DNA of 64,000 nucleotides from Phycisphaerae bacterium (GCA_050115495.1 JASFQK010000003.1:148259-212258), one strand, 5' to 3'. Shown: positions 31,007 through 52,226, numbered from the stretch's first letter. Program-made: numbers and translations. Notes: a model not told the origin generated them from the letters alone.

Positions 31007-31038
31007 ACGCGGCGGCGGCGTGCGGACGTCGCGAGCGG

Positions 31039-32220: not shown

Positions 32221-32251
32221 CACCAGCAAGCATAGCGAACGGCCGCAACAA

Positions 32252-32325: not shown

Positions 32326-32340
32326 AACATGAAGGGAAAC

Positions 32341-32598: not shown

Positions 32599-32727
32599 CC
32601 CGCTTATGGCGTGACGAGATGACGCACAACCTCAGACATAACGAACGGCTCTCGTCACGCGGCCGGCCGGCCGGCGCTACGGCGCCGCCGGCCGTGCCCT
32701 TTGTGTGTTGTGATTGTGGGTGAGCAG

Positions 32728-33168: not shown

Positions 33169-35711
33169 GCGCGGGCCTGCGACTGGCGCCGGGCGAGTAC
33201 GTCACCGAAGACGGTGAGGTTATTCAGCGCCAGCCGCGCGCGGGGTTGGGGGCGGGGCGGGTGCCGTTCGAGCTGTGCCGCGGGGCGTGGCCGTGCACCG
33301 ATGTGGGCCGGCAGCAGCGGCGGCGCTTCTGGATGGGCTTGTCCGAAACGCTGCGGGAAGAGGGGCCCGACGGCGAGAAGTACATCGACGCCAGCGTTAC
33401 GCTGCCCGGCGGTGACAAGGCGGGGAAGTTCGTCCAATTGGAGTGGGGCTACAAGCCGCCGGCAGGGTGGCGGACCTGGACGGCGCAGCAACGGCGCGAC
33501 TGGGAACGGAAGGTCGCGGTGTTGGTGCGTGTGGAGCAATTCTTCCTCGCTCGCCCGCACCTGCTGCGGTCCAAACCGTCCAGCTACCGGGAGTTCAATC
33601 GTGCCAATGTCGAATGGCTGGCCGAGATGGGACGGGAGTATCAGCCGTGCGGCCGGCCGCTGCGCGTCAGCAAGACGACGTTGAACGCGTATGCACGAAC
33701 AATCAACGATCCGGATAAGGCCGCACCCAAGCGCGGCCGGCCGAAGGGGAGCGGCGCGAAGGAATGGCACCCGCGGGCGCTTGAGCTGTTCGACACGCTC
33801 TACCGCGGGCACCGCGACGCGAGCGACGTACTGCGGAAGATCCAGGCCTACGCATGGAAAGAGGGCTTCGAGGCGCCGACGCCGGCTATGGTCTACAAGC
33901 GCATTCGGGAGATGACGCAGGCGGAGCGGGTCTTTCGACGGTCCGGGATGCGCGGCGTGAAAGAGCAGTGCGTTCCGAAGATGCGACGGACGCGAGCGGA
34001 ACTGAAGGGATGGTCGTTCGGTGATGGACATACGATAGCCGGGTTCATCAGGGTGCCTGACGGACACGGCGGTTTGAAGGCAGTGCGTCCGACGGTTGCC
34101 GGCGTCTATGTGGCATTTGCCCAGAAGTTCTCGGAGGCGCGCGCTGGGTTGTCCGAGAGCGCGGAACTGATGGCGGCGGCGTGGCGAGGGGCGGTCCTCG
34201 AAGATGGGCCGCCGGCGGTCGCGCAGTTTGACAACACACACGCCATGGACGGGCTTACGGGCTCGCCGTATCGCAAGCAGCCGGGGCGGCGGGCCAAGTA
34301 CGCCAGCGGGGGCCTGGGCGGTTTCTTCTCACTCTTCGGTACGCAGGTGCACAAGAGCAAGCCCGGAGAGAAGCACACGAACGCAGTTGAGAGCGGCTGG
34401 CGGTATTTGATCCGCGCGGTTGAGAAGTGGATGAACTCATACTGCGGGTCGCATCCGAAGGACAAGCCGGAAGGGCTGGACCGCTGGCTACGAGACAACA
34501 TCGACAAGCTCCCGACGCTGGAAGACCTGAACGTGTTCTTGCGAGAATTCAAGGCTGCGCACAACGCAACGCCGCGGCGGGCGCTGGGGGGCTTGACACC
34601 CAACCTGTTCATGGAGCGGTACGGTCCTACGCGGCGGATCATCGACCCCGACACGATCGACATTTACCTGTGCCCGATTGTGGCGGAACGGACGCTGGGG
34701 CGGGACGGCGTTTCGCTCAACGACATCCTGTACACGCCGGGGCCCAGCGTACTGCTGCGGTGGCAGGGCAAGCGTGTCGGTGTGCGACGAGACCCGGACC
34801 GGCTGGACCGTGTCACGCTCTGCGACGCAGACGGCGTCGCGATCGGGCGAGCGTACAACGACAAGCTGCGCGGGGCGCGTGCCCAGTCTATGAAGGTGGC
34901 AGAGCGTCGGGCACGACAGTACAAGGCCGCGCTGCGCACGATGATCGACACGCGGGATACGCGCTTCATGCCGAAGACCTTCGAGATTCTGCGCGTTGAG
35001 CGAGAGTACCGCGAGGCCGAAGAGGGGCGGCTGCGGAAGCAACTCGCCGACGATCCCAAGCGGGAGACGACGATCATCCGGCCGGACCTGGCCGCGTCCG
35101 CGGCTGAATGCAAGGAAGCGGACGCGCGGAGAGATGCGCAGCACGAACGACAGAAGGCGCGCAAGGCCGTCGGCGATGCTGCGGAAAGGGCGGGGTACTC
35201 GCAGGACGAACTCCTGTCGGGACTGGGCAGGTCGGCGATGCTGACGGGCGGCATGTCCGACGAGCTGCGAGCGAGGATTCGTCGCAGCATCAACATGATG
35301 GATGACTGCGACAACGAGTGTGAGGCCCGGGCGGAAGCTCAGGAGCCGGGGGACCGGCGCCGCATGGTGATGGAGCAGCTCGCGGCACGGGCTCGATACG
35401 ATGAAGAGGCCGAACGCAACACGCCGCGCCGGGAGAGCATCGGAGAGCGGTTCGCGAAGATGTACAGGGAAGCAGAGGGCGGAGGGCAGGGGGGACCAGG
35501 TGGGGACATGAGCGGCTTCGACATGCTGGCCCGCGGGCCGGCGGCGGACGCGGACGACGACGACGAGCTGGACCCCGTCGCGTTGCGCATGGAGTACTTC
35601 GGGAGTGAGATCCCGCGGCCGCCATCGGAAGAGCCCAACCCGTGGGACGAGTTTGTAGTGGGCGAAGACGAAGACGGCGACGCTGAGCAGGGGGACGACG
35701 ATGCGGCGTAG
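33165..35711 (+). CDS. Mu-type DDE transposase (MuA-like)
   Basis: SFGDGHT (D), AQFDNTH (D), NAVESGW (E), HNATPRRALGGLTPN, RTLGRDGVSLNDILY C-terminal domain; HTH region VSKTTLNAY...EAPTPAMVYKRI. Confidence 0.9.
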   Translation: MSAGLRLAPGEYVTEDGEVIQRQPRAGLGAGRVPFELCRGAWPCTDVGRQQRRRFWMGLSETLREEGPDGEKYIDASVTLPGGDKAGKFVQLEWGYKPPAGWRTWTAQQRRDWERKVAVLVRVEQFFLARPHLLRSKPSSYREFNRANVEWLAEMGREYQPCGRPLRVSKTTLNAYARTINDPDKAAPKRGRPKGSGAKEWHPRALELFDTLYRGHRDASDVLRKIQAYAWKEGFEAPTPAMVYKRIREMTQAERVFRRSGMRGVKEQCVPKMRRTRAELKGWSFGDGHTIAGFIRVPDGHGGLKAVRPTVAGVYVAFAQKFSEARAGLSESAELMAAAWRGAVLEDGPPAVAQFDNTHAMDGLTGSPYRKQPGRRAKYASGGLGGFFSLFGTQVHKSKPGEKHTNAVESGWRYLIRAVEKWMNSYCGSHPKDKPEGLDRWLRDNIDKLPTLEDLNVFLREFKAAHNATPRRALGGLTPNLFMERYGPTRRIIDPDTIDIYLCPIVAERTLGRDGVSLNDILYTPGPSVLLRWQGKRVGVRRDPDRLDRVTLCDADGVAIGRAYNDKLRGARAQSMKVAERRARQYKAALRTMIDTRDTRFMPKTFEILRVEREYREAEEGRLRKQLADDPKRETTIIRPDLAASAAECKEADARRDAQHERQKARKAVGDAAERAGYSQDELLSGLGRSAMLTGGMSDELRARIRRSINMMDDCDNECEARAEAQEPGDRRRMVMEQLAARARYDEEAERNTPRRESIGERFAKMYREAEGGGQGGPGGDMSGFDMLARGPAADADDDDELDPVALRMEYFGSEIPRPPSEEPNPWDEFVVGEDEDGDAEQGDDDAA

Positions 35712-35916
35712 CGTGGTCCTGGAACGTCTAGCGGCGGCGCGGGGGAGCGCTCGCGGGGTTGTCGCTCCGCTTCGAGCGAGCCGCGCCGCCGCTGTAATTC
35801 TTGTGTGTGTCGGGCTGTCGGCAGGGACGTCGGCGGCAGTGGCGTATCGCGGGCTGGCCGACAGGGACGTCGGCGGCTCGCTTCCCCCGATGTGCGATGC
35901 GCAGGGGACGCCAGCA

Positions 35917-36930
35917 ATGACGGTAGCAGCGAACACGTTTTCAGCAGCCTTCGAGGAAGCCGCGCGGCGAAACGAAACACGGCAGGCGGTGCGGCTGGTC
36001 CGCGACGGCGAGCCGCTCGCGGACGAGGCGGCGGCGATTGCCGCGGTTCGCAAGCACCTGGACGAGAACGGGGTCGAACCGAAGCGGCTGGCGAAGGCGC
36101 TCGACGTGGCGCCGAGCCTCATTCGGGGGCTGTTCGCAACGCCCGCGACGATTCCCGACGGCCCGCGCCACACGCTGATTCGGGACGCGAGCCGCTGGTG
36201 CCGCGCGGACGCCGAAGAGCGCCGCGTGCGCAAGGCGGCGTTCGTGCCGACGGCGTGCACGCGGCTGGTCGTGGGGCTGGCCCGCGTGGTCCGCGAGACG
36301 CGCACGATCGGGTTGGTGGTGGGCGGGCCGGGGCTCGGCAAGAGCCACGCGCTCGCAGTCGCCGCGGCGGAGTTGCCGGGCGAGACGGTGCTGGTCCGGT
36401 GTGACACGGACAGCCGCTCAGCCAAGGGCATACTCCGGGCCGTCGGCTTCGCCGGGGCGGCGGCGCTGTCGAGCGTGGCCCGGCCTTCGGTCAAGGCCGG
36501 CGTCGAGGCGGTGCGGGCCGGCAACGGACTGGTCGCCGTGGACGAGGCGCAACTTCTCGGCGTGAACGGCCTTGAGGCGCTGCGGGCCGTGTTCGATCAG
36601 GCCGGAGTCGGGCTGCTGCTGGTCGGGACCACGTCGCTGGCGCGGTCGCTGAACGGCGGGGCTGATCCGCTGTGCGGGCCGCTGGTGTCGCGGATCGCTT
36701 TGCGTGTGGACCTGGACGACGAGCTGTTGGGCGGCGGGCGGAACTGGATCGACGCGGCGGCGCTGCTGTTGACGCTGGCGAACGGGGACCCGGCGCACCT
36801 GCGGTGCGCGGTGGACACGGCGAAGGTCGCCCGCGTGCTAGCGCGGAACCGGGACGGACACGACGGCGGCGGGGCGGTTTCGCTGGCGGACGTGCAGGCG
36901 GCGCTACGCATGAGACGGAAGGACGGATGA
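35917..36930 (+). CDS. MuB/TnsC-like AAA+ ATPase
   Basis: N-terminal HTH (KRLAKALDVAPSLI), GPGLGKS Walker A, VAVDEAQ Walker B, LRAVFD, LLLVG, SRI; ORF open from 35701. Confidence 0.88.
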   Translation: MTVAANTFSAAFEEAARRNETRQAVRLVRDGEPLADEAAAIAAVRKHLDENGVEPKRLAKALDVAPSLIRGLFATPATIPDGPRHTLIRDASRWCRADAEERRVRKAAFVPTACTRLVVGLARVVRETRTIGLVVGGPGLGKSHALAVAAAELPGETVLVRCDTDSRSAKGILRAVGFAGAAALSSVARPSVKAGVEAVRAGNGLVAVDEAQLLGVNGLEALRAVFDQAGVGLLLVGTTSLARSLNGGADPLCGPLVSRIALRVDLDDELLGGGRNWIDAAALLLTLANGDPAHLRCAVDTAKVARVLARNRDGHDGGGAVSLADVQAALRMRRKDG

Positions 36931-37538
36931 CGAACGACGAGCTTAACGCGGCTCTTGCGGTGGCTCCCGGCCGGACGGTGTCGTGGGCGGCGGCGGCGCG
37001 GCTGGTGGATGCCCTCGCCCCCGGGCTGACGGCGCTGCGGCGGGACGGCACGACGCGGGCGCTGCGCACGGTGCTGTGTTACTGCGCCGCGGTGGCAGCG
37101 GACCGCCGGCGGCTGGAACAATGGCGAGCGCGGCCGCGTGCGACACGAGGCCGGCGCCCGGGGCGACTGACGATCCCGGCTTTTTTGTACAAGTGGCACC
37201 GCCAGCAGGGCGACCGCGTCTCACGCCGCACGTTCGCGCGATGGATACGCCGCTACCGGCAGACGGGGGCGGCCGGCCTGATTGACGGCCGCGGAGCGTG
37301 GAAGCGGGCGAGCACGCGCGCGGACGTGCAGCTCTTCGCCGAGTTGCTGCGGCGCGTGGCGGCTGGTGCGCCGGTCGCGGTTGCCTGGCGCGAGTTGGCG
37401 CCGGCGGCGAGAGAACAGGGAATCGCCTGGCCGGCGCTGCGCTCGATGCAGGAACGCGTGGCGGCGGTGCGGCCGTTCATCCAGGCGAACGCAGAGCTTC
37501 TGGGCGCGCCGCGGCGGCGACGAGGGGGGCGCAAATGA
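36927..37538 (+). CDS. Stand-alone transposase-type DNA-binding (HTH) protein without catalytic domain
   Basis: VSRRTFARWIRRYRQTGAAGLIDGRG and AWRELAPAAREQGIAWPALRSMQERV; ATGA overlap with the ATPase. Confidence 0.75.
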   Translation: MTNDELNAALAVAPGRTVSWAAAARLVDALAPGLTALRRDGTTRALRTVLCYCAAVAADRRRLEQWRARPRATRGRRPGRLTIPAFLYKWHRQQGDRVSRRTFARWIRRYRQTGAAGLIDGRGAWKRASTRADVQLFAELLRRVAAGAPVAVAWRELAPAAREQGIAWPALRSMQERVAAVRPFIQANAELLGAPRRRRGGRK

Positions 37539-37935
37539 GCTGGCGCTGTGCCACGAGAACGGGCCGCAGACGTGCAGGACTCGGCTCTGCTCGGCGATCG
37601 GTCGCTTGTCAGGGGGGTAAGGCGGGGCGATGCAGCCGCGGGGCTCCTGCGGGCTTGCATCACAAACTGCGAACCGCCCGGACGGTCCGGGTGGCCGCGG
37701 TCGACGGAAATCGACCTTGTCGTTGCCGATCGGATCAGCTCGCCGTTGCGCCGGCGGTGGGACTCGTCCCCCCGCCGGCGGTTTGTCGCGGCCGGCGCCG
37801 GCAGCGGCTCTGCCGACTTGGGATCCATCCGCGGGCGGGCCGCGGGCGTGGCACGTGCACGCCCGCGGTGCCGACCGTCCGCGGCACGGGCGTGGTGGCG
37901 CATTGAGTCGTCGTTAGCGACAGGAGGTCGCACGC

Positions 37936-39255
37936 GTGGCTGAGGAAAAAGAACTGCTCAAGGTTGAGCTGGACGTCGCCGAGGCGCTGGCCCGGGCCGA
38001 GAAGCTCAAGCAGACGCTGGAAGAGCTGGACAAGGTGCGGGCCGCGGGGGGCGATACCACCGGACTGGAGGCGAGACTCAACCAGGAAGTCAACGCATTG
38101 GGGGCGGTGGTCGTACAGCAGAAACAGAACGCAGGTACGACCGAAGAGGTCATTCGCCAGAAAGAGAAGCTCGCGTCGGTGGTCACCATGCTCGGCGGCC
38201 GGTTTGGGGGCTTGGTAGGGCAACTGGCGAGCGTGGGCGAGCTGTTGCTACAGATGGGACCGGCCGTTGGAGTCGTCGCCGGGACCTTGGCAGGGACCAC
38301 GGCAATCGTCGCGGGCTGGCAGGCCGTGAACCGCGAACTCAAGGAAGCCGCCGAGCGTCTGGAGCACTTCCGCAGGGCGAAGGAAGAGGTGGTCAAGGGC
38401 GAGATGTCGCCGTTGAGACAGATCGAAGGCGACCTGCTGAAGATGGGGCTCCTGGAACAGGGCCGCGCCGAGAAAGTGTACGACTACGCGCTGGCCATGA
38501 TGAGCCAGGGTGTGCCGAAGGACCTGGCGCTGTCGATTGCTCCCGAAGCGCACGCGGCGGGATTGCCGTCACAGTCGGCTTCGATACTGGCGATGGCGAA
38601 GGCGGCGGGGGTGGAGATTGCCGATACGCCGCGGGCGATGAAGACGGCGGACGAGCGGATGTCGGCCGAGTCGCGGCTTCTGTTCTCTCAGCAGCTCGTC
38701 GCGATGCGCACCACGCTTACCGGAAGAGACGCAATCGGCGAAGCGGCGAACATGCGGCGGATGAAGGAAGACGACCCCGGGAACTGGCTCGCGTACATGG
38801 GCGGCACTACGGACGTGAGGACGCTTGAATTCGCGAAGCGGATGGGGTTGCTTGATCCGGAAGCGGGACGGCAGGACGTTAGCAAGAAGATGGGCGAACT
38901 CGCGCGTGCGCGCGGGGGGCGAAGGCGGCTACGCAATTACCTGGCCGGCCGGTCGCCAGACGAAGACGGCCCGGCGGACGAGGTGCCTAAGCCGACGCCG
39001 CAATTCGATCGGCAGATCGAAGAGTTGGAAAGAATCGAGAACATCTACAAGGAGATTGGCGCAAACCGGGCCGCAGAGGACGCGTCGGGTCCGGCGCCGG
39101 GATACACGCCGCGGAATGGGACGGTCAACGTGTACAACCTCTACAACACGACGAACCAGGGCGTAGTGCTGAACGCGCCGGACCCGCGGATGCGCACGCC
39201 GGGGGTGTCGTCGCTCAACCCGGGACTGGCCGACGCATTCAGGAACCGGGATTAG
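37936..39255 (+). CDS. Coiled-coil, tape-measure-like protein
   Basis: Helical N-terminus, Gly/Ala-rich hydrophobic stretch, C-terminal TVNVYNLYNTTNQ; AGGAGG RBS; function is inferred. Confidence 0.55.
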   Translation: MAEEKELLKVELDVAEALARAEKLKQTLEELDKVRAAGGDTTGLEARLNQEVNALGAVVVQQKQNAGTTEEVIRQKEKLASVVTMLGGRFGGLVGQLASVGELLLQMGPAVGVVAGTLAGTTAIVAGWQAVNRELKEAAERLEHFRRAKEEVVKGEMSPLRQIEGDLLKMGLLEQGRAEKVYDYALAMMSQGVPKDLALSIAPEAHAAGLPSQSASILAMAKAAGVEIADTPRAMKTADERMSAESRLLFSQQLVAMRTTLTGRDAIGEAANMRRMKEDDPGNWLAYMGGTTDVRTLEFAKRMGLLDPEAGRQDVSKKMGELARARGGRRRLRNYLAGRSPDEDGPADEVPKPTPQFDRQIEELERIENIYKEIGANRAAEDASGPAPGYTPRNGTVNVYNLYNTTNQGVVLNAPDPRMRTPGVSSLNPGLADAFRNRD

Positions 39256-39267
39256 ACGGGAGACCCC

Positions 39268-39708
39268 ATGTCTTTTGAGCTGGTCGAATCTGGCGACTTC
39301 GGCGGCGGCGGTGAGGCCCTGGCCGAGGGGGAATGCAGCCTGAGGAAGGGCGGGAAGCTGGTCGCACACGCCGCGGACCTGGCGCTCGTGAACATCGGCA
39401 ACTATGCCATGGTCATGGCCGATGCCGGGACCCTGCGCATCGCGCTTCGGGCGGTGCGCGATGGCGAGGAAGCGAAGAGTTACGCGTGTTCGGTGGTCCG
39501 AAGAGCCAACAAGACCGATAGCGGCCGGCGCGAAATCAACGTGTTGCGAGCTTTGCACCGGCTGAACCTTACGCCGGAAGCGGTGGTCGGTCGGTACCCG
39601 CTGACCGTGAAGGGCGAGGGCGCCGGCGGGATGCTCATTGTGAATCTGGTCGGCGACGGGGCGAAGGACCCGGAGGGGGAGAAAGACAAGGGGGCGGCGA
39701 AGGCGTGA
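39268..39708 (+). CDS. Hypothetical protein
   Basis: 146 aa, GGGAG RBS, operonic position. Confidence 0.75.
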   Translation: MSFELVESGDFGGGGEALAEGECSLRKGGKLVAHAADLALVNIGNYAMVMADAGTLRIALRAVRDGEEAKSYACSVVRRANKTDSGRREINVLRALHRLNLTPEAVVGRYPLTVKGEGAGGMLIVNLVGDGAKDPEGEKDKGAAKA

Positions 39709-39839
39709 TGTTCGGAAGGGGTGCACATGTCGGATTCGGGCGGGTCGGTGGCGACGGCGCCGCCGCCGGCGGGCCTATGCGGACGAGTGGGTCGCACGGG
39801 CCACCGCTTCGCGCCGCGGGACAGATGGAGGATACGAGC

Positions 39840-40160
39840 ATGTCAGACCACACCCAACAGAGTGCGGGGGAACCGACGAGCTGGCCGCCGCTGGATTCGC
39901 GGGTGGAACTCAGAGTGCGGGGGATGGAACGGGGCGCACGTGCGCACGGCCGGCTGTTGGCGGCGTGCGAGCTGACGTCCGACGATCAGCAGCGGCTACA
40001 TGCCTGGCTATCCGGGCGCGGCGGCCCGGCACAGTTCGGCGCCCTGGTCCGGTTGTTGGGCAGGCTGGACTTCGATGAACGCCGGGACTTGATCGACGGG
40101 CTGCACGAGATCATCGAGGTACCGGCACCGCAGTCGTCGGACGCGAAAGGCGGTGCGTGA
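39840..40160 (+). CDS. Hypothetical protein
   Basis: GGAGGA RBS before ATG 39840; stop overlaps the next start. Confidence 0.6.
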   Translation: MSDHTQQSAGEPTSWPPLDSRVELRVRGMERGARAHGRLLAACELTSDDQQRLHAWLSGRGGPAQFGALVRLLGRLDFDERRDLIDGLHEIIEVPAPQSSDAKGGA

Positions 40161-40855
40161 TGTGTGGACACGCAACAACGGTACGGCAGGACATGCCGAC
40201 GTGGTCGGCGCTGAAGGATTTGGTCGCCGGGTTGGGGGAGCGGGACATCAACCGCCCGCTCGGTCGGGCCAGCGGTGACGAGCCGCTGTTGCCGGCGCCG
40301 GAGGTCGTGGCTGAGGCCGTCGCCCGGGAGTTGCTTTGCATCAGGCAGCGAATGGCGGCGGCGCTGGGGTGGCTTGAGCAAGGGATCATCGCCGATTTCG
40401 AGTTCGCGGCCGACGATTGCGAGGCGGGCCGGCGGCTGGCGGTGGACGAGCTGCACGATGCGCAGACCCGGCTCCATGAATGCGGCGGAGCGCTGCTGAC
40501 CTGGCTGCGCCTGGTCGGGCACAGCTCGATTGTGCCGTTGGATGCGGAATCATGGGCGGCGCTCTGCGCTTTGGCGGAAGACACGCTGCCGCACCCGCAC
40601 GCGGGCTACGTCAGCGAGCTCGTCAAGGCGGCCGTCGTGAACCTGTCAGAGCGACAGGACGCCCCGGCGGTAGTCGCGCGCGGCGAGTGTGAGCGGCTCC
40701 GGGCGTGCGGGTTCAAGCTGAAACCGGACCGGTGGCCGTCTGTCCAGGTCGGCGGCGGGAAGCCCTGGCCGGCGACGGAAGCGAAGAATGGCAAGAGCGG
40801 CAAGGCGTCGCGGGCGAAGGCGTCCGCGGGCAAGGCCGCGGTGGCGGTTGCTTGA
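40157..40855 (+). CDS. Hypothetical protein
   Basis: 232-aa ORF, GTGA overlap with the upstream gene, Lys/Ala-rich tail. Confidence 0.65.
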   Translation: MMCGHATTVRQDMPTWSALKDLVAGLGERDINRPLGRASGDEPLLPAPEVVAEAVARELLCIRQRMAAALGWLEQGIIADFEFAADDCEAGRRLAVDELHDAQTRLHECGGALLTWLRLVGHSSIVPLDAESWAALCALAEDTLPHPHAGYVSELVKAAVVNLSERQDAPAVVARGECERLRACGFKLKPDRWPSVQVGGGKPWPATEAKNGKSGKASRAKASAGKAAVAVA

Positions 40856-40865
40856 GGATCTGAGC

Positions 40866-41948
40866 ATGTACGGGTGTCTGGTTGCGAAGGTGGGCGGCGT
40901 GCCCAAGCGTGAGTTTCGCATCGTCCCATACGGCGCGGTCGATGCGGTCAACGCCGCGAAGGGCGGGCCGTTCACCTTCACACGCGAACACGCCCGACAG
41001 GCGGTCTCGTGGTTCCAGCGGGTGGGCCGAAAGCTGATGATCGACTACGAGCATCAAAGCGTGCAGAGTTTGAACACCCGGCCGGACGGGCTGTCGCCCG
41101 CGGCCGGGTGGATCGGGCGTATCGAAGCCCGTCCGGATGGACTCTGGGCGGCGGATGTCGAGTGGACGGCCGCCGCTGCGGAAGCCCTTCGGCGCGGGGA
41201 GTACGCCTACTTCTCGCCGGTCATTTACTGGGGCGACCGGAACCATGGCACACTCGACAGCTTGGGGCCGATCGCGCTCACCAACGATCCGAGTATGACC
41301 AACGTCGAGCCGCTCGTCGCGACGCGGCTACACGTGGATGTGTTCGCCGGCGACGGCGCCGGCGGAAGTGAGACCAGCCCGGGCAGGACGCCGCGGGGCG
41401 CAACACAAGGAGACGGTATGAGCCCGATGGATCGGGTGGCGGAGGCCCTTGGGCTTGCGCCCGGGGCGAGTCTGGAAGAGATCCTCGCCGAGATCAAGCG
41501 GCGGGGTGGCGCACAGACGACGGCGGCGATTCGCGCGCGACTGGGACAGCTCGAAGCGGGAGTCACGGCACTGACGGGCTGTCCGGCGCGCGGGGCGAAC
41601 GACGAAGCCGGCTGGGCGGCGGAGTACGACGCAAACCTCCCCGACGCGGAAACGGGACGTCCTCTTCAGGACTGCTTCATGAGCAGAGACAACTACGTCC
41701 ACTACATGAAGGCGGTACAGGATGGGCTTGTTACCACGCGCCCCAGCCGACAGCAGCGGGCGGCGACGGTTGCCAAGCGCAGAGCGGAAGAGGGGATGTC
41801 GGACGCGACCTTCGAGGCCGTTCTGAGGAGGGAGTGGAACGGCAACGTGGTCGACGAGACCGGCCGTCGCGTGCGCGAGTGTTTCTTCAGCTTCGAGAAC
41901 TTCGCCGCGTACCGGCGGGGCGTGAGATCGGAACGCATCACAGCGTAG
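40866..41948 (+). CDS. Mu gpI-like prohead protease with C-terminal scaffold region
   Basis: LMIDYEHQS, SPAAGWI, DGLWAADVEWT, EYAYFSPV, ALTNDP motifs of Mu-like prophage I proteases. Confidence 0.9.
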   Translation: MYGCLVAKVGGVPKREFRIVPYGAVDAVNAAKGGPFTFTREHARQAVSWFQRVGRKLMIDYEHQSVQSLNTRPDGLSPAAGWIGRIEARPDGLWAADVEWTAAAAEALRRGEYAYFSPVIYWGDRNHGTLDSLGPIALTNDPSMTNVEPLVATRLHVDVFAGDGAGGSETSPGRTPRGATQGDGMSPMDRVAEALGLAPGASLEEILAEIKRRGGAQTTAAIRARLGQLEAGVTALTGCPARGANDEAGWAAEYDANLPDAETGRPLQDCFMSRDNYVHYMKAVQDGLVTTRPSRQQRAATVAKRRAEEGMSDATFEAVLRREWNGNVVDETGRRVRECFFSFENFAAYRRGVRSERITA

Positions 41949-42020
41949 GCCGCTGCGGGCATCGGACGAGAAGACACCAGCAGCCACGAACGGCTGCGTA
42001 GCTTGAGAAAGGATTCGGGA

Positions 42021-42863
42021 ATGACCGATGTGGGACTGACTGAGAAGCCGATTACCAGCAAGCTGTCCGAGCAGGCGGCGGCGCTGTTGGCGGATCGGCG
42101 TGCCAAGGCGGGGCAGGCGTACTCGGAGATGCTTCGCCGCAACGATTCGCCGCAGGCAGGCGACGCTGAGCGACTGGCGGACGTGATGCACACGCTGGGG
42201 CGGGACGGCAATGACCTCGAAGACGACACGCTCCTGGTGCAGAAGATCATGGAGGCGGAACAAGCCGCCGGTGACCTGGAGGCCTTCGAGGCGACCGAGG
42301 CGCCGCCCATCGCGCAGAAGTACCGCGATGGAATGGCCCGGTTCAAGGCCGAGCGGGAGGCGTTCGAGAAGCGGTGGCATGAGGAAATCGAGGCGCTGGA
42401 ACGCGAGTGGAGCCTCTGCAAGCACAAGCGTGTGAACCTGAACACCGTCGCCAGACAGCTCGACTTCCTGCGGCGGAAGTGGGCGGAGCGGATCGGTCAG
42501 CCCTTGCCGCCGGTGAAGCGGGAGACCATTCCGGCTCCGAAGCCGTCGCGTGAGGAAGTGATTGCCCGCATGAAGCGGGAGTGCGAGCGATTCACGTTCA
42601 GCGTGGCGGTAAGTCAACGGACCCGGTGGACAGTAGCCGACGGCGTAGGCCGTGGCTGGAGGATACGAACATGGGACAACCGATTCACGCAGAGCAGCAG
42701 AAGCAGCAGTTGTTGCTCGCCTGGCTCGCGGTTGAGCCGGGCCTGCAAAACCTGGACACGCTCCCGCCGCAGGTCCTCGACCTGGAAGAGTGCTTTCACA
42801 CGGTGCCGCAGTCCATCGCGCACCTGGTTCGGCCGGGGGGCAGCGCTACGTATCGCGAGCTGA
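42021..42863 (+). CDS. Hypothetical coiled-coil protein
   Basis: First ~195 aa are protein-like; the tail overlaps the next gene by 193 bp, so the end is uncertain. Confidence 0.6.
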   Translation: MTDVGLTEKPITSKLSEQAAALLADRRAKAGQAYSEMLRRNDSPQAGDAERLADVMHTLGRDGNDLEDDTLLVQKIMEAEQAAGDLEAFEATEAPPIAQKYRDGMARFKAEREAFEKRWHEEIEALEREWSLCKHKRVNLNTVARQLDFLRRKWAERIGQPLPPVKRETIPAPKPSREEVIARMKRECERFTFSVAVSQRTRWTVADGVGRGWRIRTWDNRFTQSSRSSSCCSPGSRLSRACKTWTRSRRRSSTWKSAFTRCRSPSRTWFGRGAALRIAS

Positions 42864-43291
42864 TTCAGCGGCTGAAGCGCATGCGGCGTCTGGCGACCTG
42901 GATCGAAGACGAAGACGGCCTGGACACGCTGCCCGGCATGCCGGAAGGCGTCCAGTTGCTGAGCGACTGCGGGCACGCTGTGCCGGAGTCGGTGTCGGCG
43001 AAGGTCGGCTTCAACGGCCCGACCGGTTACGGGGCGGTGGTGGAGCGTCTGGGGCACATGGGGGCGCTGCTACGCTTCCTGGACGGGCATCCCGACGGCT
43101 TGCGGCCCGGCGACGAGATTCCGGCGGACGTGCTGAAGCTGAAGGACTGTTCGGTTCCCATCCCGTCGGCGAGCGAATCGACCGCGTCGGCGGCGGTGGG
43201 TCTGTCCGGACGCGTGTCCTACGGGTTGATCGTCGGGCGGCTGCTTGAGCTGAAGGCCGCGCCCGCGACCGACCAGCCCGCAGCGGAATAG
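42671..43291 (+). CDS. Hypothetical protein with three internal ~57-aa repeats
   Basis: Repeat 'L....GL....P..V..L.(D/E)C...(V/I)P.S...V...G...Y....RL'; GGAGGA RBS. Confidence 0.7.
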   Translation: MGQPIHAEQQKQQLLLAWLAVEPGLQNLDTLPPQVLDLEECFHTVPQSIAHLVRPGGSATYRELIQRLKRMRRLATWIEDEDGLDTLPGMPEGVQLLSDCGHAVPESVSAKVGFNGPTGYGAVVERLGHMGALLRFLDGHPDGLRPGDEIPADVLKLKDCSVPIPSASESTASAAVGLSGRVSYGLIVGRLLELKAAPATDQPAAE

Positions 43292-43425
43292 ACGACCGCC
43301 CGGCGGCGGTTCTGCGGGCCTTCGATGAGCGATTGATTAGCCGTCGAAGGACGACATAGAGGCCGAACCGACGGCCTTATTGAGACGCCCGGTGGGGGGC
43401 CGGGCTTGGAGTTTGCGCCCGTTTT

Positions 43426-43473
43426 CGACCGGTCTTTTCGTGCAGCGCGACCGGTCTTTTCGCGCGCCGATCA
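43426..43473 (-). repeat. Right end with two tandem putative transposase-binding sites
   Basis: CGACCGGTCTTTT at 43426-43438 and 43448-43460 (22-bp period); terminus ...CGATCA at 43473. Confidence 0.85.
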
Positions 43474-43534
43474 TGAAGGGCCCGCGAGGTGGCCGGAGGG
43501 GGTTTTGAGCCGCCCGGTCGCTGTGTGACTCATA

Positions 43535-43562
43535 ACGTCCTATAATATATATTATGTTGCGT
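43535..43562 (+). other. dif-like XerCD recombination site
   Basis: ACGTCCTATAA-TATATA-TTATGTTGCGT, 11-6-11 layout, intergenic, strikingly AT-rich; close to B. subtilis dif as recalled (ACTTCCTAGAA-TATATA-TTATGTAAACT). Confidence 0.8.
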
Positions 43563-43645: not shown

Positions 43646-43972
43646 CTACGGCTGGCGGTTGTCGGCCGGTGCGGCGGTTTGAAGCTGGCTTAACTCAAAG
43701 CCAGCCAAGGGCTTAAGCTGACGCCGGTTATAGTCGTAGCTGTAGACGATCATACGCTTGGCGGCGGCGTCGAGGACGATCACGCCCTCGTTCGACGTCG
43801 TAAGTTGTTGCGTGCAAACGACATAGTCTCCGCTGCGGTCGCTCATGCCGATGGCCTGCGCCGGCGGCGCAGAATTCACCAGCAAGAGCCCGACGAAGAA
43901 AATGCACGCGGTCACACTCAGAACGCCGATGGCAAACGTCCGGGCGTCGATCGTGGTGGATGGCGTGCTCAT
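43646..43972 (-). CDS. Hypothetical small membrane-anchored protein
   Basis: TM plus beta-rich tail; operonic. Confidence 0.75.
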   Translation of the reverse strand: MSTPSTTIDARTFAIGVLSVTACIFFVGLLLVNSAPPAQAIGMSDRSGDYVVCTQQLTTSNEGVIVLDAAAKRMIVYSYDYNRRQLKPLAGFELSQLQTAAPADNRQP

Positions 43973-43975
43973 GGT

Positions 43976-44263
43976 TTAGTCCCGGTTGTTACGGAAATCA
44001 CGTTCGAGATCTCGCCAGTCGCTGTAGGTCAGCTCCTGACGGCCACGGTCCCAGTAGAAGACGTGCAGCGTGCGCGCACGAAGATCGAACACGTACAGCG
44101 CATCGTGCTCGTCCTGGATCTCGCCGGCGACCATGATGTAGTTGCCGGCCAGGCCGGTGCCCTGGGCGGCGGCGGTCGGCAGCGAGTAGCTGGCGAGGCA
44201 CAGTCCGGTAAGCAGGACCAAGTTCAAGCAGACCAGCAAGGCGACGATGTAGTCTCTGCGCAT
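43976..44263 (-). CDS. Hypothetical small exported protein
   Basis: Hydrophobic leader, GGAGG RBS; similar to the neighbouring gene. Confidence 0.75.
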   Translation of the reverse strand: MRRDYIVALLVCLNLVLLTGLCLASYSLPTAAAQGTGLAGNYIMVAGEIQDEHDALYVFDLRARTLHVFYWDRGRQELTYSDWRDLERDFRNNRD

Positions 44264-44276
44264 GGCGCCTCCCGCA

Positions 44277-44501
44277 TCAATCGAGATGGCTTCGGTGCGG
44301 ATTCTTGAAGGCGATCAGCATGCAGACGGCGATGAAGCCGACCCCAAACAGCCACTGGAGCCAGGGCTTCGTGAATTCCATCACCGGGACGTCGACGTAC
44401 GGGGGCTCATCGTCCTGAGCGAAGGCAGGCTCGGCGACGACGATCAGCAGGACTAGCAGGGCTGCCGCGAGACGGAAAAATCTTGACCAGCCGTACGACA
44501 T
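44277..44501 (-). CDS. Hypothetical small protein
   Basis: Signal peptide (AFA/Q), TM, C-terminal KNPHRSHLD. Confidence 0.7.
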   Translation of the reverse strand: MSYGWSRFFRLAAALLVLLIVVAEPAFAQDDEPPYVDVPVMEFTKPWLQWLFGVGFIAVCMLIAFKNPHRSHLD

Positions 44502-44764
44502 CCGGGGATCTCCGTAGCGGGTCCAGGGGGACCTTCACCACAGGCATGGTAGCGGTGCCCGGTGGTCTGGGCAAGCGCCGGCCGATTCGGTGGCGGCACT
44601 ACGGCCCCCCTGCCCCGGCGGCGCAGCTTGAGTTTCGGCTGGTCAGCGGATATCGTCCCCATTTGAACGACGGCAGCCTATCGGTGGGCGTCGGCTCCCG
44701 TCCCCGCAAGCGGGTCATCTGGACGCTCCCCCAATCACAGCCAGATTAGTATGGTGAGGACGGC

Positions 44765-46084
44765 ATGAGTGTGGACCCACGGAAAGTGATCATTCTGGGC
44801 GCTGCGGGGCGCGATTTTCACGATTTCAACACGTATTGGCGCGACAACCCGGCGTACGAGGTCGTAGCCTTCACGGCGACACAGATCCCGGACATCGAGG
44901 GACGCGTCTATCCGCCGGTGCTGTCGGGCCCGCGCTATCCGAAGGGTATTCCGATCTACGCCGAGGAAGAGCTGCCGAAGCTCATCGAGCAGACCGGCGC
45001 CGACCTGTGCACGATCGCCTATTCCGATCTGCCGCACGCGGTGGTGATGCACAAGGCGTCGCTCGTGAACGCTTGCGGGGCGGACTTCATGATCCTGGGC
45101 CACCGGCACACGATGCTGAAGAGCAACAAGCCGGTGATCGCCGTCTGCGCCGTGCGCACGGGCTGTGGCAAGAGCCAGACATCGCGGGCGGTCGTGTCGA
45201 TCCTGAAGAAGCTCGGGAAGAAGGTGGCGGCGGTGCGGCACCCGATGCCGTACGGCGACCTGGCCAAGCAGGTTTGCCAGCGGTTCGCCACGCTCGAGGA
45301 CATGGACAAGCACGAGTGCACGATCGAGGAGCGCGAAGAGTACGAACCGCACATCGCTACGGGCAACGTGGTCTTCGCCGGCGTGGACTACGCGAAGATT
45401 CTCGCGGCCGCCGAGGCTGAGGCGGACGTGGTTCTGTGGGACGGCGGGAACAACGACATGTCGTTCTACAAGCCGGACCTGTACATCACGGTCGTCGACC
45501 CGCACCGGCCCGGTCACGAGCGCGCCTACTACCCGGGTGAGACGAACCTGCACATGGCCGACGTCATCGTCGTGAACAAGGTCGGCACGGCCCGGCCGGA
45601 AGACGTGCAGACGGTGCTGAAGAACATCGCCGAAGTGAACCCGCAGGCGACCGTCATCCAGGCGAACTCGCCGGTGACCGTGTCCGATCCGTCGCAGATC
45701 AAGGGCAAGCGCGTGCTGGTGGTCGAGGACGGCCCGACGCTGACGCACGGCGAGATGAAGTACGGCGCCGGGCACGTGGCGGCGCGGCAGTTCGGGGCGG
45801 CGAAGATCGTTGATCCTCGCTCGGTGGCCGTCGGTTCGATCCGCAACACCTTCGCCAAGTACACGCACGTGAGCGAGGTGCTGCCGGCGATGGGCTACGG
45901 CGACACGCAGGTCAAGGAGCTCGAGCAGACGATCAACGCGGTCGATTGCGACCTCGTGCTGATCGGCACGCCGATCGACCTGGGCCGCATGCTCAAGATC
46001 AACAAGCCGACGATGCGCGTGCTGTACGAGCTGGAAGAGCGTCAGCCCGGCCAGCTTGAGGCGGCGATTCGGAAGGTCGTGTAG
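44765..46084 (+). CDS. Cyclic 2,3-diphosphoglycerate synthase-like P-loop GTPase (COG2403-like)
   Basis: GAAGRDFHDFN, AVRTGCGKSQT, RHPMPYG, WDGGNND, EDGPTLTHG. Confidence 0.85.
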   Translation: MSVDPRKVIILGAAGRDFHDFNTYWRDNPAYEVVAFTATQIPDIEGRVYPPVLSGPRYPKGIPIYAEEELPKLIEQTGADLCTIAYSDLPHAVVMHKASLVNACGADFMILGHRHTMLKSNKPVIAVCAVRTGCGKSQTSRAVVSILKKLGKKVAAVRHPMPYGDLAKQVCQRFATLEDMDKHECTIEEREEYEPHIATGNVVFAGVDYAKILAAAEAEADVVLWDGGNNDMSFYKPDLYITVVDPHRPGHERAYYPGETNLHMADVIVVNKVGTARPEDVQTVLKNIAEVNPQATVIQANSPVTVSDPSQIKGKRVLVVEDGPTLTHGEMKYGAGHVAARQFGAAKIVDPRSVAVGSIRNTFAKYTHVSEVLPAMGYGDTQVKELEQTINAVDCDLVLIGTPIDLGRMLKINKPTMRVLYELEERQPGQLEAAIRKVV

Positions 46085-48838: not shown

Positions 48839-49129
48839 GAGGATTCACTCCGCCTGAATAGCGCTCGCTCCGCCGGGCCCACCCAACGCGGGCCGGCAGT
48901 TCGGGCGATTATCGCCGAAGCGGCGGCGGGTGAATAGGACCTTCGGCGGGTGGAGTTATGAGACGGCGGTTCGGCGGGGGGAGTAGGCCTGACGGGCATT
49001 GCGTCGCCGACACGCCACCCAGCTTCAAATCGTCATGCTGCCCCCCTGCCCCGACGATGAATCCAAGGCTCTGTCCGTATGCCCGGACCGCCGGATGGTC
49101 CGCATAAATCAACCAAGGAGTTGACCGCC

Positions 49130-52100
49130 ATGTCCCCTACGCTCGGACGCACCCTTCGCCTGCTACCCGTCCTGCTGGTGCTGCTGCTGACCTCCTGGCC
49201 CGTGGCGGCCCAGACCGTCGAACAGACGCTCGTTGACCTTCAGGAACAAGGCGAGCGCGAGGGCTGGACCTTCACCACCGGCCCGTCGGAGGCCAGCTTC
49301 CGCACGCTGGATGAGCTCTGCGGCTTCGTGCCTCTGCTCGACCCGCCGCCCGGCGGTGAGCCCCGGCTGCACACGCCGCCGCTCGGTCTGCCCGCAGCGT
49401 ACGACTGGCGCAACGAGGGTGGCATGACGGCCATTCGCGACCAGGGCTCGTGCGGCAGTTGCTGGGCGTTCGCCACCGTGGCTCCGCTCGAATCGGCGAT
49501 CCTCATCCGCGATGGGGTGACGGTCGACCTGTCCGAGCAGTGGTTGGTGAGCTGCAACAACGACGGCTACGGCTGCACCGATGGCGGCTGGTTCGCCCAC
49601 GATTATCACCAGTGGAAGACGGACGACTGCGACGGGACCGGGGCGGTGCTCGAAGCGGACTTCCCCTACGTCGCCTCCAACGCGCCGTGCAGCTGTCCGT
49701 ACAACCACCCTTACGAGATCGCCAACTGGGCCTACGTGGGCCCCACCACGGACGTGGCAGCCATCGACGACATTAAGGCGGCCATTCTCGAATACGGGCC
49801 CGTCTCTGTGGCGGTCTACGTGGACACCGCGTTCCAGAACTACTCGGGCGGCGTGTACAACTCGTGCCCGGATCCGGTGCCGGCCCCGAACCACGCCGTC
49901 GTGCTGGTGGGCTGGGACGACACGCAGGGTACGAGCGGCGTGTGGATTCTGCGGAACTCGTGGGGTACGAGCTGGGGTGACGCAGGCTACATGTACATCG
50001 AGTACGGCTGCTCGAACGTCGGGTATGCCGCCTGTTACATCGAGTACGAGGGCGCCAACGCCGGGTTGATCGAGGTCACGCCGACGGAGATGAACCTCGG
50101 CACGGTCGCGGCGGGCAGCTCGACGACGCAGACGTTTACGATCCGCAATATCGGCAGCACGACGGCCAACGGCAACGCCGCGGGTCTGATGCCGCCGTTC
50201 AGTTTCGCCGACAGCGCGTCGTACACGCTGGCGGTGGGTGAATCGCAGAACATCACGGTTCGATTCGCACCGACGGCGGCGGGCGACTTCACGGATGCGG
50301 TCCTCTTCGCCGCGGGCACGCCAGTGCTGGCCACGGTTAGTGGTACGGCCACCGGCGGGACGCCGACGGATAGCCGCGGCAGTGCGCCGCTCGTCAGCGA
50401 TGGGACGTACACCGGCACGAACATGGGGGCGACCACCGACGGGAGCAGCACGTGCGGCGGCGAGGCGGACGTGTGGTGGCGCTTCAAGGCCCCGCATACC
50501 GGCGCGACCGAGATCGACACGTGCGGCAGTGATTTTGACACCGTGCTGAGCGTGCACGGGGTCGTCGGTGGGATTCAGCTCGCCTGTAACGATGACTACG
50601 CCGGCTGCGCTACCAATCCGGGCGGCTCGCGCGTGGCGTTCAACGTCATCGCCGGCGCGCAGTATCTCGTTCGCGTCGCCGGCCGGAGCGGGGCGACGGG
50701 CAACATCGTCCTCAGTATCGAGACGACGGGCTTGCCGCGGACGATCTCCGGCATGGTGACGACCAACAACGGCTTCCCGGTCGCGGGCGTGACGCTCGCC
50801 GGCCTGCCCGGTAGCCCGGTGACCAACAGTTACGGACAGTATTCCGTCGAGGTGCCGGACGGCTTCACCGGCGTCGGCACGCCGACGCGTGCGGGCGTTA
50901 CCTTCAGCCCGGCGTCGCGCACGTACGTTGATTTGGCCGATGACAGCACGAGTCAGGACTACACCACCGCGAGCGGGACGTACACCATCAGCGGGCAGGT
51001 GCTCGACGGTAGCAGTGATCCGGTCGCGGGCGTGCGTCTCAACGGTTTGCCCGGTACGCCGGTCACCGGCTCGACGGGCACGTACTCGGCGACGGTGGCC
51101 GCCGGTTTCACCGGCACGGTCACACCCTCGCGCAATGCCACCGACTTCGCGCCCACCAGTCGTGGCTATACCAACGTTGTGGCCAACCAGGCGAACCAGG
51201 ATTACACGGCGACGAGGCACACCGGCGGGTTGCGCGTGAACCTCGGGCCGGCCGATGCGGTGACCGCCGGCGCGCTGTGGTGTGTCGACGGCGGGGCCTG
51301 GTACGACAGCGGCGAGACGGCGACGGGAGTGGACGTCGGGCAGCACGCGATCAGTTTCGCTTCCGTGATTGGCTGGACCGCCCCCCTGCCCCACGTGGTG
51401 ACCGTCCAGGAGAACGTGACGTCGGCGTTCGACGCGACGTACGTGCAGTACTACTACGCGCTGACGCTGACCGCGGACCCGGAGGACACGGGCACGATCG
51501 TGGCCACCACGGCGCCCGATGACGGTGATTACTACCTCCAGGACACGGAGGTGGCGATGACGGCGGCGCCGGCACCTGGTTATCGCGTTCGTGCGTGGCA
51601 CTCGGCCGACGTGGCTCCCGCTGCTGGCGTAACGACCAACACGGTCACGATGACCAGTGATCGCACGGTGACGGTCGAGTTCGAGCCGCAGCCGTTCCAC
51701 CACTACATCCTGACCGCGACGGTGGCCGGTGGCGAAGGGACGGTCTCGCCGGCACGCGGGGCGTATCGAGCCGGACAGCCGGTGACGGTGACGGCCACGC
51801 CGGCGGCCGGCTATGAGGTCTCGGCCTGGAGCGGCACGGACGACGACGCGTCCACCGCCACGACCAATACCGTCACGATGCTGACGTCGCAGGACGTGAC
51901 CGTGACATTCGCGCTCAGCGGGTCGACGGCGCAGGTGGTCGAGCCGCCGACGGGCATGGTCTGGACGCCCGCGGAAGAGATGCCGGCGGACGAGACCGAG
52001 CCGCCGATCGAGGAAGAGATCGACGAGGACGAGCTGGCCGTGCTCCAGTCCGCACCGGGGCTGGGCGTGTGCGGTCTGGGTGTGGTCGAAATGATGATGG

Positions 52101-52156
52101 TCTCGCTGCTTGGGCTGGCTGCGCTGCGCTGGAGTGCCGGCGGTCGCGGCCGCTGA
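49130..52156 (+). CDS. Papain-family (C1A) cysteine protease with Ig-like and InlB-B-like repeats, C-terminal TM tail
   Basis: DQGSCGSCWAF, NHAVVLVGW, WILRNSWG; AAGGAG RBS; ends CGLG-hydrophobic-RGR. Confidence 0.92.
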   Translation: MSPTLGRTLRLLPVLLVLLLTSWPVAAQTVEQTLVDLQEQGEREGWTFTTGPSEASFRTLDELCGFVPLLDPPPGGEPRLHTPPLGLPAAYDWRNEGGMTAIRDQGSCGSCWAFATVAPLESAILIRDGVTVDLSEQWLVSCNNDGYGCTDGGWFAHDYHQWKTDDCDGTGAVLEADFPYVASNAPCSCPYNHPYEIANWAYVGPTTDVAAIDDIKAAILEYGPVSVAVYVDTAFQNYSGGVYNSCPDPVPAPNHAVVLVGWDDTQGTSGVWILRNSWGTSWGDAGYMYIEYGCSNVGYAACYIEYEGANAGLIEVTPTEMNLGTVAAGSSTTQTFTIRNIGSTTANGNAAGLMPPFSFADSASYTLAVGESQNITVRFAPTAAGDFTDAVLFAAGTPVLATVSGTATGGTPTDSRGSAPLVSDGTYTGTNMGATTDGSSTCGGEADVWWRFKAPHTGATEIDTCGSDFDTVLSVHGVVGGIQLACNDDYAGCATNPGGSRVAFNVIAGAQYLVRVAGRSGATGNIVLSIETTGLPRTISGMVTTNNGFPVAGVTLAGLPGSPVTNSYGQYSVEVPDGFTGVGTPTRAGVTFSPASRTYVDLADDSTSQDYTTASGTYTISGQVLDGSSDPVAGVRLNGLPGTPVTGSTGTYSATVAAGFTGTVTPSRNATDFAPTSRGYTNVVANQANQDYTATRHTGGLRVNLGPADAVTAGALWCVDGGAWYDSGETATGVDVGQHAISFASVIGWTAPLPHVVTVQENVTSAFDATYVQYYYALTLTADPEDTGTIVATTAPDDGDYYLQDTEVAMTAAPAPGYRVRAWHSADVAPAAGVTTNTVTMTSDRTVTVEFEPQPFHHYILTATVAGGEGTVSPARGAYRAGQPVTVTATPAAGYEVSAWSGTDDDASTATTNTVTMLTSQDVTVTFALSGSTAQVVEPPTGMVWTPAEEMPADETEPPIEEEIDEDELAVLQSAPGLGVCGLGVVEMMMVSLLGLAALRWSAGGRGR

Positions 52157-52226
52157 GGCGAGGGGTTGAGGCGGACATCGCCGCGGAGGTAGTACTGCCG
52201 TGCGCACAGAAACCGGAGGCGAGAAC

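Follow-up and report, generated by a model that had tools for sequence, protein, structure and literature searches.

Probable site-specific transposition of a Mu-like element subfamily to a fixed position beside the chromosomal dif site in the Phycisphaerales

Introduction

Near-random transposition directed by MuB has its textbook example in bacteriophage Mu. IMEX elements (CTX-phi and similar) are integrated at dif by XerCD, recombine within dif and are flanked by dif-like sites. Here, a Mu-like element located beside dif is described in a 64,000-nucleotide stretch of DNA from a Phycisphaerae bacterium, referred to throughout as the window (G000:C3:148259-212258). G000 is the draft genome holding the window (5.97 Mb, 85 contigs, 67% G+C); comparison genomes are labelled G001 and so on, contigs carry the prefix C and loci the prefix L. 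The element occupies window positions 29466-43473 (14,008 bp) and has TG..CA ends, subterminal repeats, and genes for MuA and MuB. A preliminary description of the window had suggested that the insertion could reflect dif-targeted transposition.

Site-specific DDE transposition to a conserved attachment (att) site is already known. Harmer, Pong & Hall (2023, PMC10132070) describe the IS1202/ISAjo2 family as 'dif site hunters', whose insertions lie 5 bp from the XerC side. Several features of this family are shared with the elements studied here: the DDE transposase is of the TnsB/MuA type, the ends are of TG..CA type and include an additional internal binding site, a 5-bp duplication is made (seen among the present elements in G019), and the orientation is constant, with insertion invariably next to the XerC side of dif or pdif. 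The IS1202/ISAjo2 elements of the same account are 1.5 kb long, encode a single protein of 441-457 amino acids, lie 5 bp from the XerC site and come from Acinetobacter, whereas the present elements are 13-14 kb long, carry a separate MuB ATPase together with phage-type genes, lie 53-61 bp from dif and belong to the Planctomycetota. In the literature searched, which was that outside subscription journals, no report was found of a MuA/MuB-type element homing to dif, and the IS1202/ISAjo2 elements were the only transposons found described as dif-targeting.

In Tn7 and the CRISPR-associated transposons (CASTs) it is the right end that is turned toward the recognised site, and TnsC determines the offset (PMC11014353). 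The transposase and AAA+ regulator of these elements are homologous to MuA and MuB (PMC11014353 and PMC11406308), and, as in the elements described here, insertion takes place at a fixed offset of tens of bp from a conserved site, with the right end proximal, a 5-bp duplication (seen here in G019) and the target left intact. Unlike the Tn7-like systems, the open reading frames (ORFs) scanned in G000 and in the other elements gave no Pfam family match to TnsA or TniQ/TnsD at E <=0.001, although distant homologues are possible. Moreover, the ATPase profile fits phage Mu MuB (2.9e-11) and not TnsC (0.57), the element carries repressor-like, Ner-like and head-protease genes, and the att site is dif rather than the 3' end of a gene.

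Two further comparisons are instructive. The Tn5053/Tn402 'res site hunters' (Minakhina et al. 1999, as cited in PMC11406308) use the MuA/MuB-like proteins TniA and TniB to seek the dimer or cointegrate resolution site of a recombinase that is not used for their own insertion, which resembles the situation described here; they differ in targeting plasmid res sites with serine resolvases and in having TniQ and a resolvase of their own, none of which was found here. With phage Mu itself the element shares MuA, MuB, TG..CA ends with repeated subterminal sites, a left end that carries repressor-like and Ner-like genes, and a gpI-type head protease, and the related element of G019 also shares the 5-bp duplication; the element differs in its length (~14 kb against ~37 kb), in that no terminase, portal or tail family was detected, and in being site-specific where Mu is near-random. 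IMEX elements likewise have dif as a conserved chromosomal landing place, but the present element transposes beside dif, has transposon ends, and is accompanied by no second dif-like site in the window.

Results

Distance of homologous elements from dif

The right end of the element is separated by exactly 61 bp (as measured by script) from the 28-bp, 11-6-11 dif site at 43535-43562, as the preliminary description had stated; the intervening spacer (43474-43534) is host DNA, and the ~20 bp of it nearest dif resemble the native dif flank of the congeners G002 and G003. The element is present in single copy in G000. The same description had cautioned that one example could not exclude chance, and three further elements have now been found 53-58 bp from dif. 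A GTDB-wide scan with the single MuA protein returned no relatives, and a search of 5.8 billion proteins scored three sequences, these being MuA itself, one 55% identical protein on a 6.9-kb contig, and one 38% identical protein. Mu-like transposases as such are widespread in the order, with matches at E <=1e-10 in 51 of 279 genomes. MuB gave a match of any kind in 48 of the 279 order genomes, with at least 39% identity solely in G000, G072, G083, G019 and G001, and this group is treated here as one MuB subfamily. A GTDB-wide scan of all species with the MuB alignment found the same four loci (G072, G083, G019 and G001). No further subfamily member was present in 401 genomes sampled from the class, and the MuB alignment gave distant, partial matches only, of ~40% identity or less, in metagenomes (6 loci) and viral contigs (143 loci, of which 80 were kept).

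The relationship between each subfamily member and dif was then established. G083 (contig C71) has the order MuA, MuB, other genes, right end (...GACGCGGAACA), 58 bp, dif, and the conserved genes that lie right of dif; the left end of this element is off its contig. The G019 element has its body on C103 and its last 382 bp on C81, and its right end (...GTCGCGGAACA) is 53 bp from dif. Together with the left end (TGTTGAGGGACAG...), this right end forms inverted repeats of the type TGTT..AACA, and ACGAC flanks the element on both sides, representing a perfect 5-bp target duplication. The G072 element (C204; 13,439 bp) ends (...GGCGCGGAACA) 57 bp from a dif that had been missed by an exact-pattern search because one of its arms is the variant TTCTGTT. 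The copy in G001 is on a 2,974-bp contig of an assembly in which no dif was found, and its position cannot be assessed.

All four assessable subfamily members, which represent three genera, therefore have their right end 53-61 bp from the same XerC-type arm (61, 58, 53 and 57 bp in G000, G083, G019 and G072), in the same orientation and with the order MuA, MuB, right end, XerC-type arm; no homologue of this MuB subfamily was found at an unrelated locus. The spacers of the four elements are not alignable and the distance from right end to next gene varies between 164 and 330 bp, leaving dif as the only shared landmark. By our own arithmetic, the odds of one random insertion falling within a 9-bp window, in one orientation, in a ~5-Mb genome are ~1e-6. 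The near-random target choice that is the hallmark of Mu was not seen in any of the four. Side, orientation and offset relative to dif are fixed in four genomes, the ends are of Mu type, and a 5-bp duplication is present in one. We consider it probable that this Mu-like subfamily (~13-14 kb; Phycisphaerales, Planctomycetota) transposes site-specifically to one chromosomal position, its right end being placed 53-61 bp outside the XerC-type arm and directed toward dif. Insertion outside this arm would leave dif intact. The suggestion of dif-targeted transposition, originally drawn from one locus, is strengthened by these comparisons.

The dif site

The 28-mer at 43535-43562 (plus strand) reads ACGTCCTATAA / TATATA / TTATGTTGCGT, with the arm on the left taken to be XerC-type and the arm on the right XerD-type by analogy with well-studied dif sites. 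No other sequence within 8 mismatches of it was found in the 5.97-Mb draft of G000, where the shorter pattern ATAA-N6-TTAT occurs at just two loci, the second of which (C1:138488) is without a TTATGTT arm. Of 61 relatives, 52 have the core ATAA-N6-TTATGTT, as do 223 of the 279 order genomes, usually exactly once per genome, and the reversed pattern, used as a control, was rarely matched. Thirty loci of the family gave the 28-mer consensus A[ACG]GTCC[GT]ATAA-[CGT]ATATA-TTATGTTGCGT, which the window site fits; the DNA flanking dif is not conserved across those loci. To the right of dif lie conserved host genes (43646-46084), comprising three small minus-strand ORFs and a 439-amino-acid plus-strand gene, and these are syntenic beside dif in every neighbourhood examined (G002-G006, G019, G022, G027, G031, G034, G072, G083 and G088).

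In G007, a near-complete relative with a 1.54-Mb contig, the GC skew was positive in 10 of 11 sampled 20-kb blocks left of the motif and negative in 7 of 9 blocks right of it, so that the switch falls at the motif. The G000 genome encodes a XerC (on C7; 343 bits against the XerC equivalog, cut-off 335), a XerD-like protein (on C1; 322 bits against a tyrosine recombinase subfamily, cut-off 279, and closest to XerD) and an FtsK_gamma domain (95 bits). The preliminary description had spoken of a dif-like site. Judged by its conservation, its synteny, the skew switch in G007 and the XerC, XerD-like and FtsK-gamma genes, the 28-mer is a genuine chromosomal dif, and the only such site in the 5.97-Mb draft.

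Some variation was seen at dif in relatives. In G004 (L047 7199-7226) and G006 (L048 and L049) the 28-mer and a few flanking bases are inverted relative to hisS and the small ORFs, the reference orientation being that of G000, G002, G003, G005, G022 and G027. In genus g26, TTCTGTT replaces TTATGTT in the XerD-type arm of both species (L099 18288-18315 in G072; L330 in G031). At least 120 viral contigs in IMG/VR (L199-L278) contain an exact GTCCKATAA-N6-TTATGTTG; the 80 loci checked encode none of the 23 element or flank proteins searched, and these contigs may represent phages or IMEX elements with dif-like sites in or next to them. An inovirus to the right of dif had been suspected from the small ORFs and a weak TrbC match, and was rejected because these small genes are the conserved host neighbours of dif throughout the family.

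Independence of the insertions

A single ancient insertion at dif in the ancestor of the family, inherited vertically and lost in most lineages, could be proposed instead, since all cases are in one bacterial family and G083, G019 and G072 have similar right-end sequences. However, divergence among the elements greatly exceeds that among the host genes, with identities of 41-58% for MuB and 26-62% for MuA against 65-85% for the host proteins at the locus, and their similarities ignore host genera: the MuA proteins of G083 and G019, which belong to the same genus, are 27% identical, while those of G019 and G072, from different genera, are 62% identical. The late genes also differ among the elements. 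In addition, the ORFs of the G000, G083 and G019 elements are intact and the G019 element retains its perfect 5-bp duplication, while many clean losses would be needed to account for the six relatives (G004, G006, G022, G027, G034 and G088) in which hisS lies 97-781 bp from dif. The sister species of G072, G031, whose flanks have 90-92% nucleotide identity to it, has a dif without the element, and no element is present at dif in the congeners of G000 (G002, G003, G004 and G006). An ancient single insertion is consequently regarded as highly improbable. On this comparison the elements are strongly diverged and mosaic, and because they diverge beyond their hosts, show similarities that cross genera, and have empty sites in relatives, they point to at least three separate insertions, probably four.

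The terminal octamer of the right end, GCGGAACA, was observed to be directly repeated in the flank of two elements, with the copies 2 bp apart in G083 (L092 12778-12795) and abutting, 0 bp apart, in G072 (L102 18064-18079); G019 is without such a repeat.

Mu-like elements elsewhere and A/T content

Mu-like elements outside the subfamily were located relative to dif. The MuB gene of G074 is 965 kb from dif on the same contig. The hisS-dif interval of G034 is intact; the contig that carries its dif also has a MuA-like fragment, but 16 kb from dif and on the opposite side. In G005, G013, G014, G026, G027, G085, G093 and G097 the Mu-like matches are on contigs other than the dif contig, which is a weaker statement than a measured distance as many of the control assemblies are fragmented. 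The dif neighbourhoods of G005, G013, G026, G027, G088 and G034 are intact or unrelated. More distant Mu-like elements, then, are not at dif.

MuB prefers A/T-rich DNA, and it could be that this preference draws the element to an A/T-rich dif in a 67% G+C genome with no specific recognition. The 30 bp centred on dif are indeed 70% A+T, placing them in the top 0.04% of G000 windows. However, 2,193 windows of 30 bp are equally or more A/T-rich, and at the scale of 100-500 bp the dif locus is just in the top 1.3-6.7%; moreover, such a preference would fix neither offset nor orientation, nor would it confine the behaviour to one MuB subfamily. We consider this explanation very unlikely.

Coincidence combined with survivorship was also weighed, in that insertion may be near-random, harmless intergenic insertions at the terminus may persist, and the case was picked post hoc. 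As this explanation would have it, what lies across dif from the conserved genes differs among several relatives, with 2 kb there in G002, 4.4 kb in G031, 35.7 kb in G000 and other genes in G005, and the site came from a scan of many windows. Survivorship nevertheless predicts neither a fixed offset nor a fixed orientation, whereas all four assessable members fall in a 9-bp range on one side in one orientation, and other Mu-like elements of the same genomes and order lie away from dif; little credence can be given to chance. Finally, although the element adjoins dif and foreign DNA gathers on that side, integration of the element or of a larger island by XerCD recombination, in the manner of CTX-phi and other IMEX elements, can be practically discounted and is not supported, as no second dif-like site is present in the window even at 10 mismatches in 28, the elements end 53-61 bp short of dif, and their TG..CA ends have transposase-type repeats, with a 5-bp duplication in G019.

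Ends of the element

The left end (29466-29495, plus strand) consists of TGAT, 8 nucleotides and GAAAAGAACGGTCG, is an inverted match to the right end, and has a 5-bp flank, GTGTG, that is unlike the right flank. The right end (43427-43473, plus strand) contains two direct repeats of GACCGGTCTTTTCG (43427-43440 and 43449-43462) and a terminal ...GATCA; its terminus, ...GCGCGCCGATCA (in longer form ...GACCGGTCTTTTCGTGCAGCGCGACCGGTCTTTTCGCGCGCCGATCA), ends at 43473. When reverse-complemented, the right end reads TGAT, 8 nucleotides and GAAAAGACCGGTCG, and so pairs with the left end at 29466. Three subterminal repeats on the minus strand near the left end (29477-29490, 29619-29632 and 29705-29718; overall 29477-29718) have 1-2 mismatches to the right-end repeat and are presumed to be transposase-binding sites by analogy with L1-L3 of Mu. 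At 0-2 mismatches the 14-nucleotide repeat was found solely at 29477, 29619 and 29705 in its minus-strand form and at 43427 and 43449. With as many as 3 mismatches allowed the total was 9, not above the shuffle mean of 7.05; it is the clustering of the repeats at both ends, and not their total, that carries information. TG..CA termini and several subterminal repeats are present in the elements of G000, G019 and G072, consistent with Mu-like elements.

Genes carried by the element

At the left of the element, a repressor-like helix-turn-helix (HTH) protein of 416 amino acids (31039-32289, minus strand) matches Pfam HTH_31 (2e-10) and, weakly, a PHROG transcriptional repressor, and is 32% identical to a gene of the G088 element. 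A 39-bp unit forms a direct tandem repeat of 85% identity within this gene region (31668-31745). A Ner/Cro-like small HTH protein is encoded next (32323-32598, plus strand; weak matches to Pfam HTH_26 and HTH_3). The MuA-type DDE transposase (33135-35711, plus strand; 858 amino acids, one copy in the genome) matches Pfam Mu-transpos_C (3e-8) and phrog_310, transposase (8.5e-46); the G019 and G072 copies also match Pfam DDE_2. The MuB-type AAA+ target-DNA activator (35701-36930, plus strand) matches Pfam AAA_22 and phrog_296, DNA transposition protein (2.4e-27), and its profile match to phage Mu MuB was to 8xvb. An N-terminal extension of MuB was entertained as a possible selector and dropped, because alignment of the N termini placed the start of the conserved part near residue 73, which makes this a MuB of ordinary size.

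The remaining assigned genes are all on the plus strand. The start codon of a 203-amino-acid protein with two HTH motifs (36927-37538) overlaps the MuB stop codon, and the protein resembles the end-binding domain of MuA/TnsB. Next come a 439-amino-acid protein with no assigned function (37936-39255), which has no Pfam or NCBIfam match and an N terminus in common with genes of the G083 and G019 elements, and a 146-amino-acid protein (39268-39708) that is kept at 39-56% identity in all Mu-like elements compared, including that of G088, which is not at dif. A Mu gpI-type head protease/scaffold is encoded at 40788-41948 (Pfam Mu-like_Pro, 1.5e-33; phrog_328, 1e-33).

After the head protease there are two overlapping ORFs in different frames (42003-42863 and 42581-43291; together 42003-43291), which may represent a frameshifted or unusual gene. 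At the corresponding place G072 has one 412-amino-acid gene of HK97 capsid type with no similarity to these ORFs. Of virion-type genes, only the head protease was found in G000, and a ClpP-type protease and the HK97-type capsid gene in G072. Scans with Pfam and PHROG detected no terminase, portal or tail families in the elements, and the element therefore falls short of a complete Mu-like phage. Elsewhere in the genome (G000:C14:45060-45620), another Mu gpI-type protease, 52% identical to the first, indicates a further Mu-like prophage.

The surrounding locus

The ancestral left neighbour of dif is hisS (6555-7856, plus strand), which in G000 now lies 35.7 kb from dif. The plsX-fabH-...-pfk block with which the window begins also stands before hisS in the six relatives where hisS remains close to dif. 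The gap in G000 is made up of 21.6 kb of accessory genes (7857-29465) and, nearest dif, the Mu-like element. The accessory genes encode a beta-propeller/dockerin protein, two SPFH proteins, a MacB/HlyD ABC exporter, an MCP, a PAS-GAF histidine kinase and an AAA ATPase matching phrog_8638 (8e-132), and this region may be an island that has grown at a dif landing pad. A search for relics of older Mu-like elements between hisS and the left end gave no matches. Further right in the window, two tandem genes (49079-55292) encode papain-family (Peptidase_C1) proteins of ~1,030 amino acids with Ig-like and InlB B-repeat domains.

The junctions were compared with assembled contigs from other data, leaving out uncovered parts and short-sided joints of the wetland sample X2. 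In the Logan assembly of the probable source run, one 17,184-nucleotide contig spans 28153-45336 with no differences; being from the same sample, it is not independent support. The second wetland sample, X2, from another study, yielded short, low-depth contigs identical to parts of the element. One of these (411 nucleotides, depth 3.6) spans 43138-43556 and is without 8 bp beginning at the first base past the right end (43474-43481). This single contig, in which an error is possible, may reflect a 53-bp spacer; the gap, if real, would suggest a second insertion of the same element or a junctional indel.

Discussion

Mu-type machinery that homes to a fixed point beside dif calls for some means of choosing the target. 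In one scheme, a MuB oligomer of set length is recruited or delimited by a landmark at dif and would then present DNA ~55 bp away to the MuA transpososome in one orientation, in parallel with the roles of TnsD/TniQ, TnsC and TnsB in Tn7 and CASTs. To the element, dif would offer a safe harbour that is conserved and present in single copy. Host XerC/XerD on dif may be the landmark, as may a DNA-binding protein encoded by the element, such as the 203-amino-acid HTH protein, although any particular selector is at present distinctly doubtful. Homologues of the latter follow MuB in all five subfamily members (hidden Markov model E values of 1e-12 in G083 and 1.6e-6 in G072) and none is present in the G088 element, making this protein a candidate accessory factor or selector as judged from gene order and homology. 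The Atlas clusters nearest to the HTH protein consist of stand-alone 'Mu I-gamma' and HTH_TnsB proteins (score 0.93), which is to be read as a lead. The AlphaFold2 model of the protein is all-helical (mean predicted local distance difference test, pLDDT, 71.6), sequence searches of the PDB returned nothing for either this protein or MuA, and a predicted complex with MuB scored 0.00 against a mark of 0.32, which carries no weight either way. Host XerC at dif, as proposed for the IS1202 family, would be an equally good candidate landmark.

Several observations weigh against site-specific transposition to dif, or against parts of the scheme outlined above. The MuA of G088 is the closest in the genomes (36-38% identical), and there the hisS-dif interval is intact at 97 bp with the element on another contig; that the closest MuA is not at dif suggests that targeting tracks MuB type and not MuA similarity. 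The G000 element is without a 5-bp target duplication (flanks GTGTG on the left and TGAAG on the right), as is that of G072 (ACGGC and GCGGA), in which MuA is also broken. This would mean that both left junctions are secondary, with later changes on the left side. For G072, the match of the left flank to G031 continues as far as the last base ahead of the left end, and 4.4 kb of G031 sequence toward dif is gone, which could be the outcome of recombination between tandem copies or of an adjacent deletion. In G000 the GC skew does not flip at dif in the ~20 kb left on the contig and is positive for 14 kb rightward, and the cumulative skew minimum of C3 is near position 120,000, ~70 kb left of dif; a rearrangement, misassembly or chimeric contig is possible. 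Use of the 28-mer by XerCD is a prediction from comparison with other genomes, and any activity of the element is likewise putative. With regard to the HTH protein, weaker homologues are found after MuB in G005, upstream of MuA in G013 and at the N termini of MuA proteins, so the protein class is not specific to elements at dif. A Foldseek search of its model against the PDB gave no match at E <=0.001, the top weak hits being MuA/TnsB chains at E >=0.6. Finally, the sample is small: four cases could be assessed, and all of them come from metagenome-assembled genomes within a single bacterial family.

Site-specific transposition by the MuB subfamily remains the reading that we favour. A fuller version of it can be offered tentatively, and is on balance doubtful: a Mu lineage with true att-site specificity, in which the selector would be the XerCD-dif complex or a dif-binding paralogue of the transposase DNA-binding domain, and MuB would act as the ruler. 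If true, targeting selected by XerCD or by such a paralogue would be an independent, TniQ-less invention of Tn7-style targeting, and the elements a natural intermediate between random Mu and site-specific Tn7/Tn5053 transposition.

The preliminary description had spoken of a new targeting mode. The probable homing of a Mu-type element to dif bears this out in part, but the phrase is overstated, since the IS1202/ISAjo2 elements are already described as dif site hunters (PMC10132070). What would be new here is site-specific transposition to dif by a Mu-type two-protein machinery at an offset of ~55 bp. MuA/MuB machinery that can be site-specific without TniQ would be a break from the Mu paradigm and would provide a comparative handle on the rise of Tn7-like targeting from Mu-like ancestors. 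The system would also be compact, comprising two or three proteins and a 28-bp landmark, and open to direct testing in Escherichia coli. After the IS1202 family, the subfamily would represent a second, mechanistically different dif-seeking DDE lineage and would extend this behaviour to the Planctomycetota. The separation of hisS from dif in G000 suggests, in turn, that the XerC side of dif may be a general landing pad where genomic islands grow.

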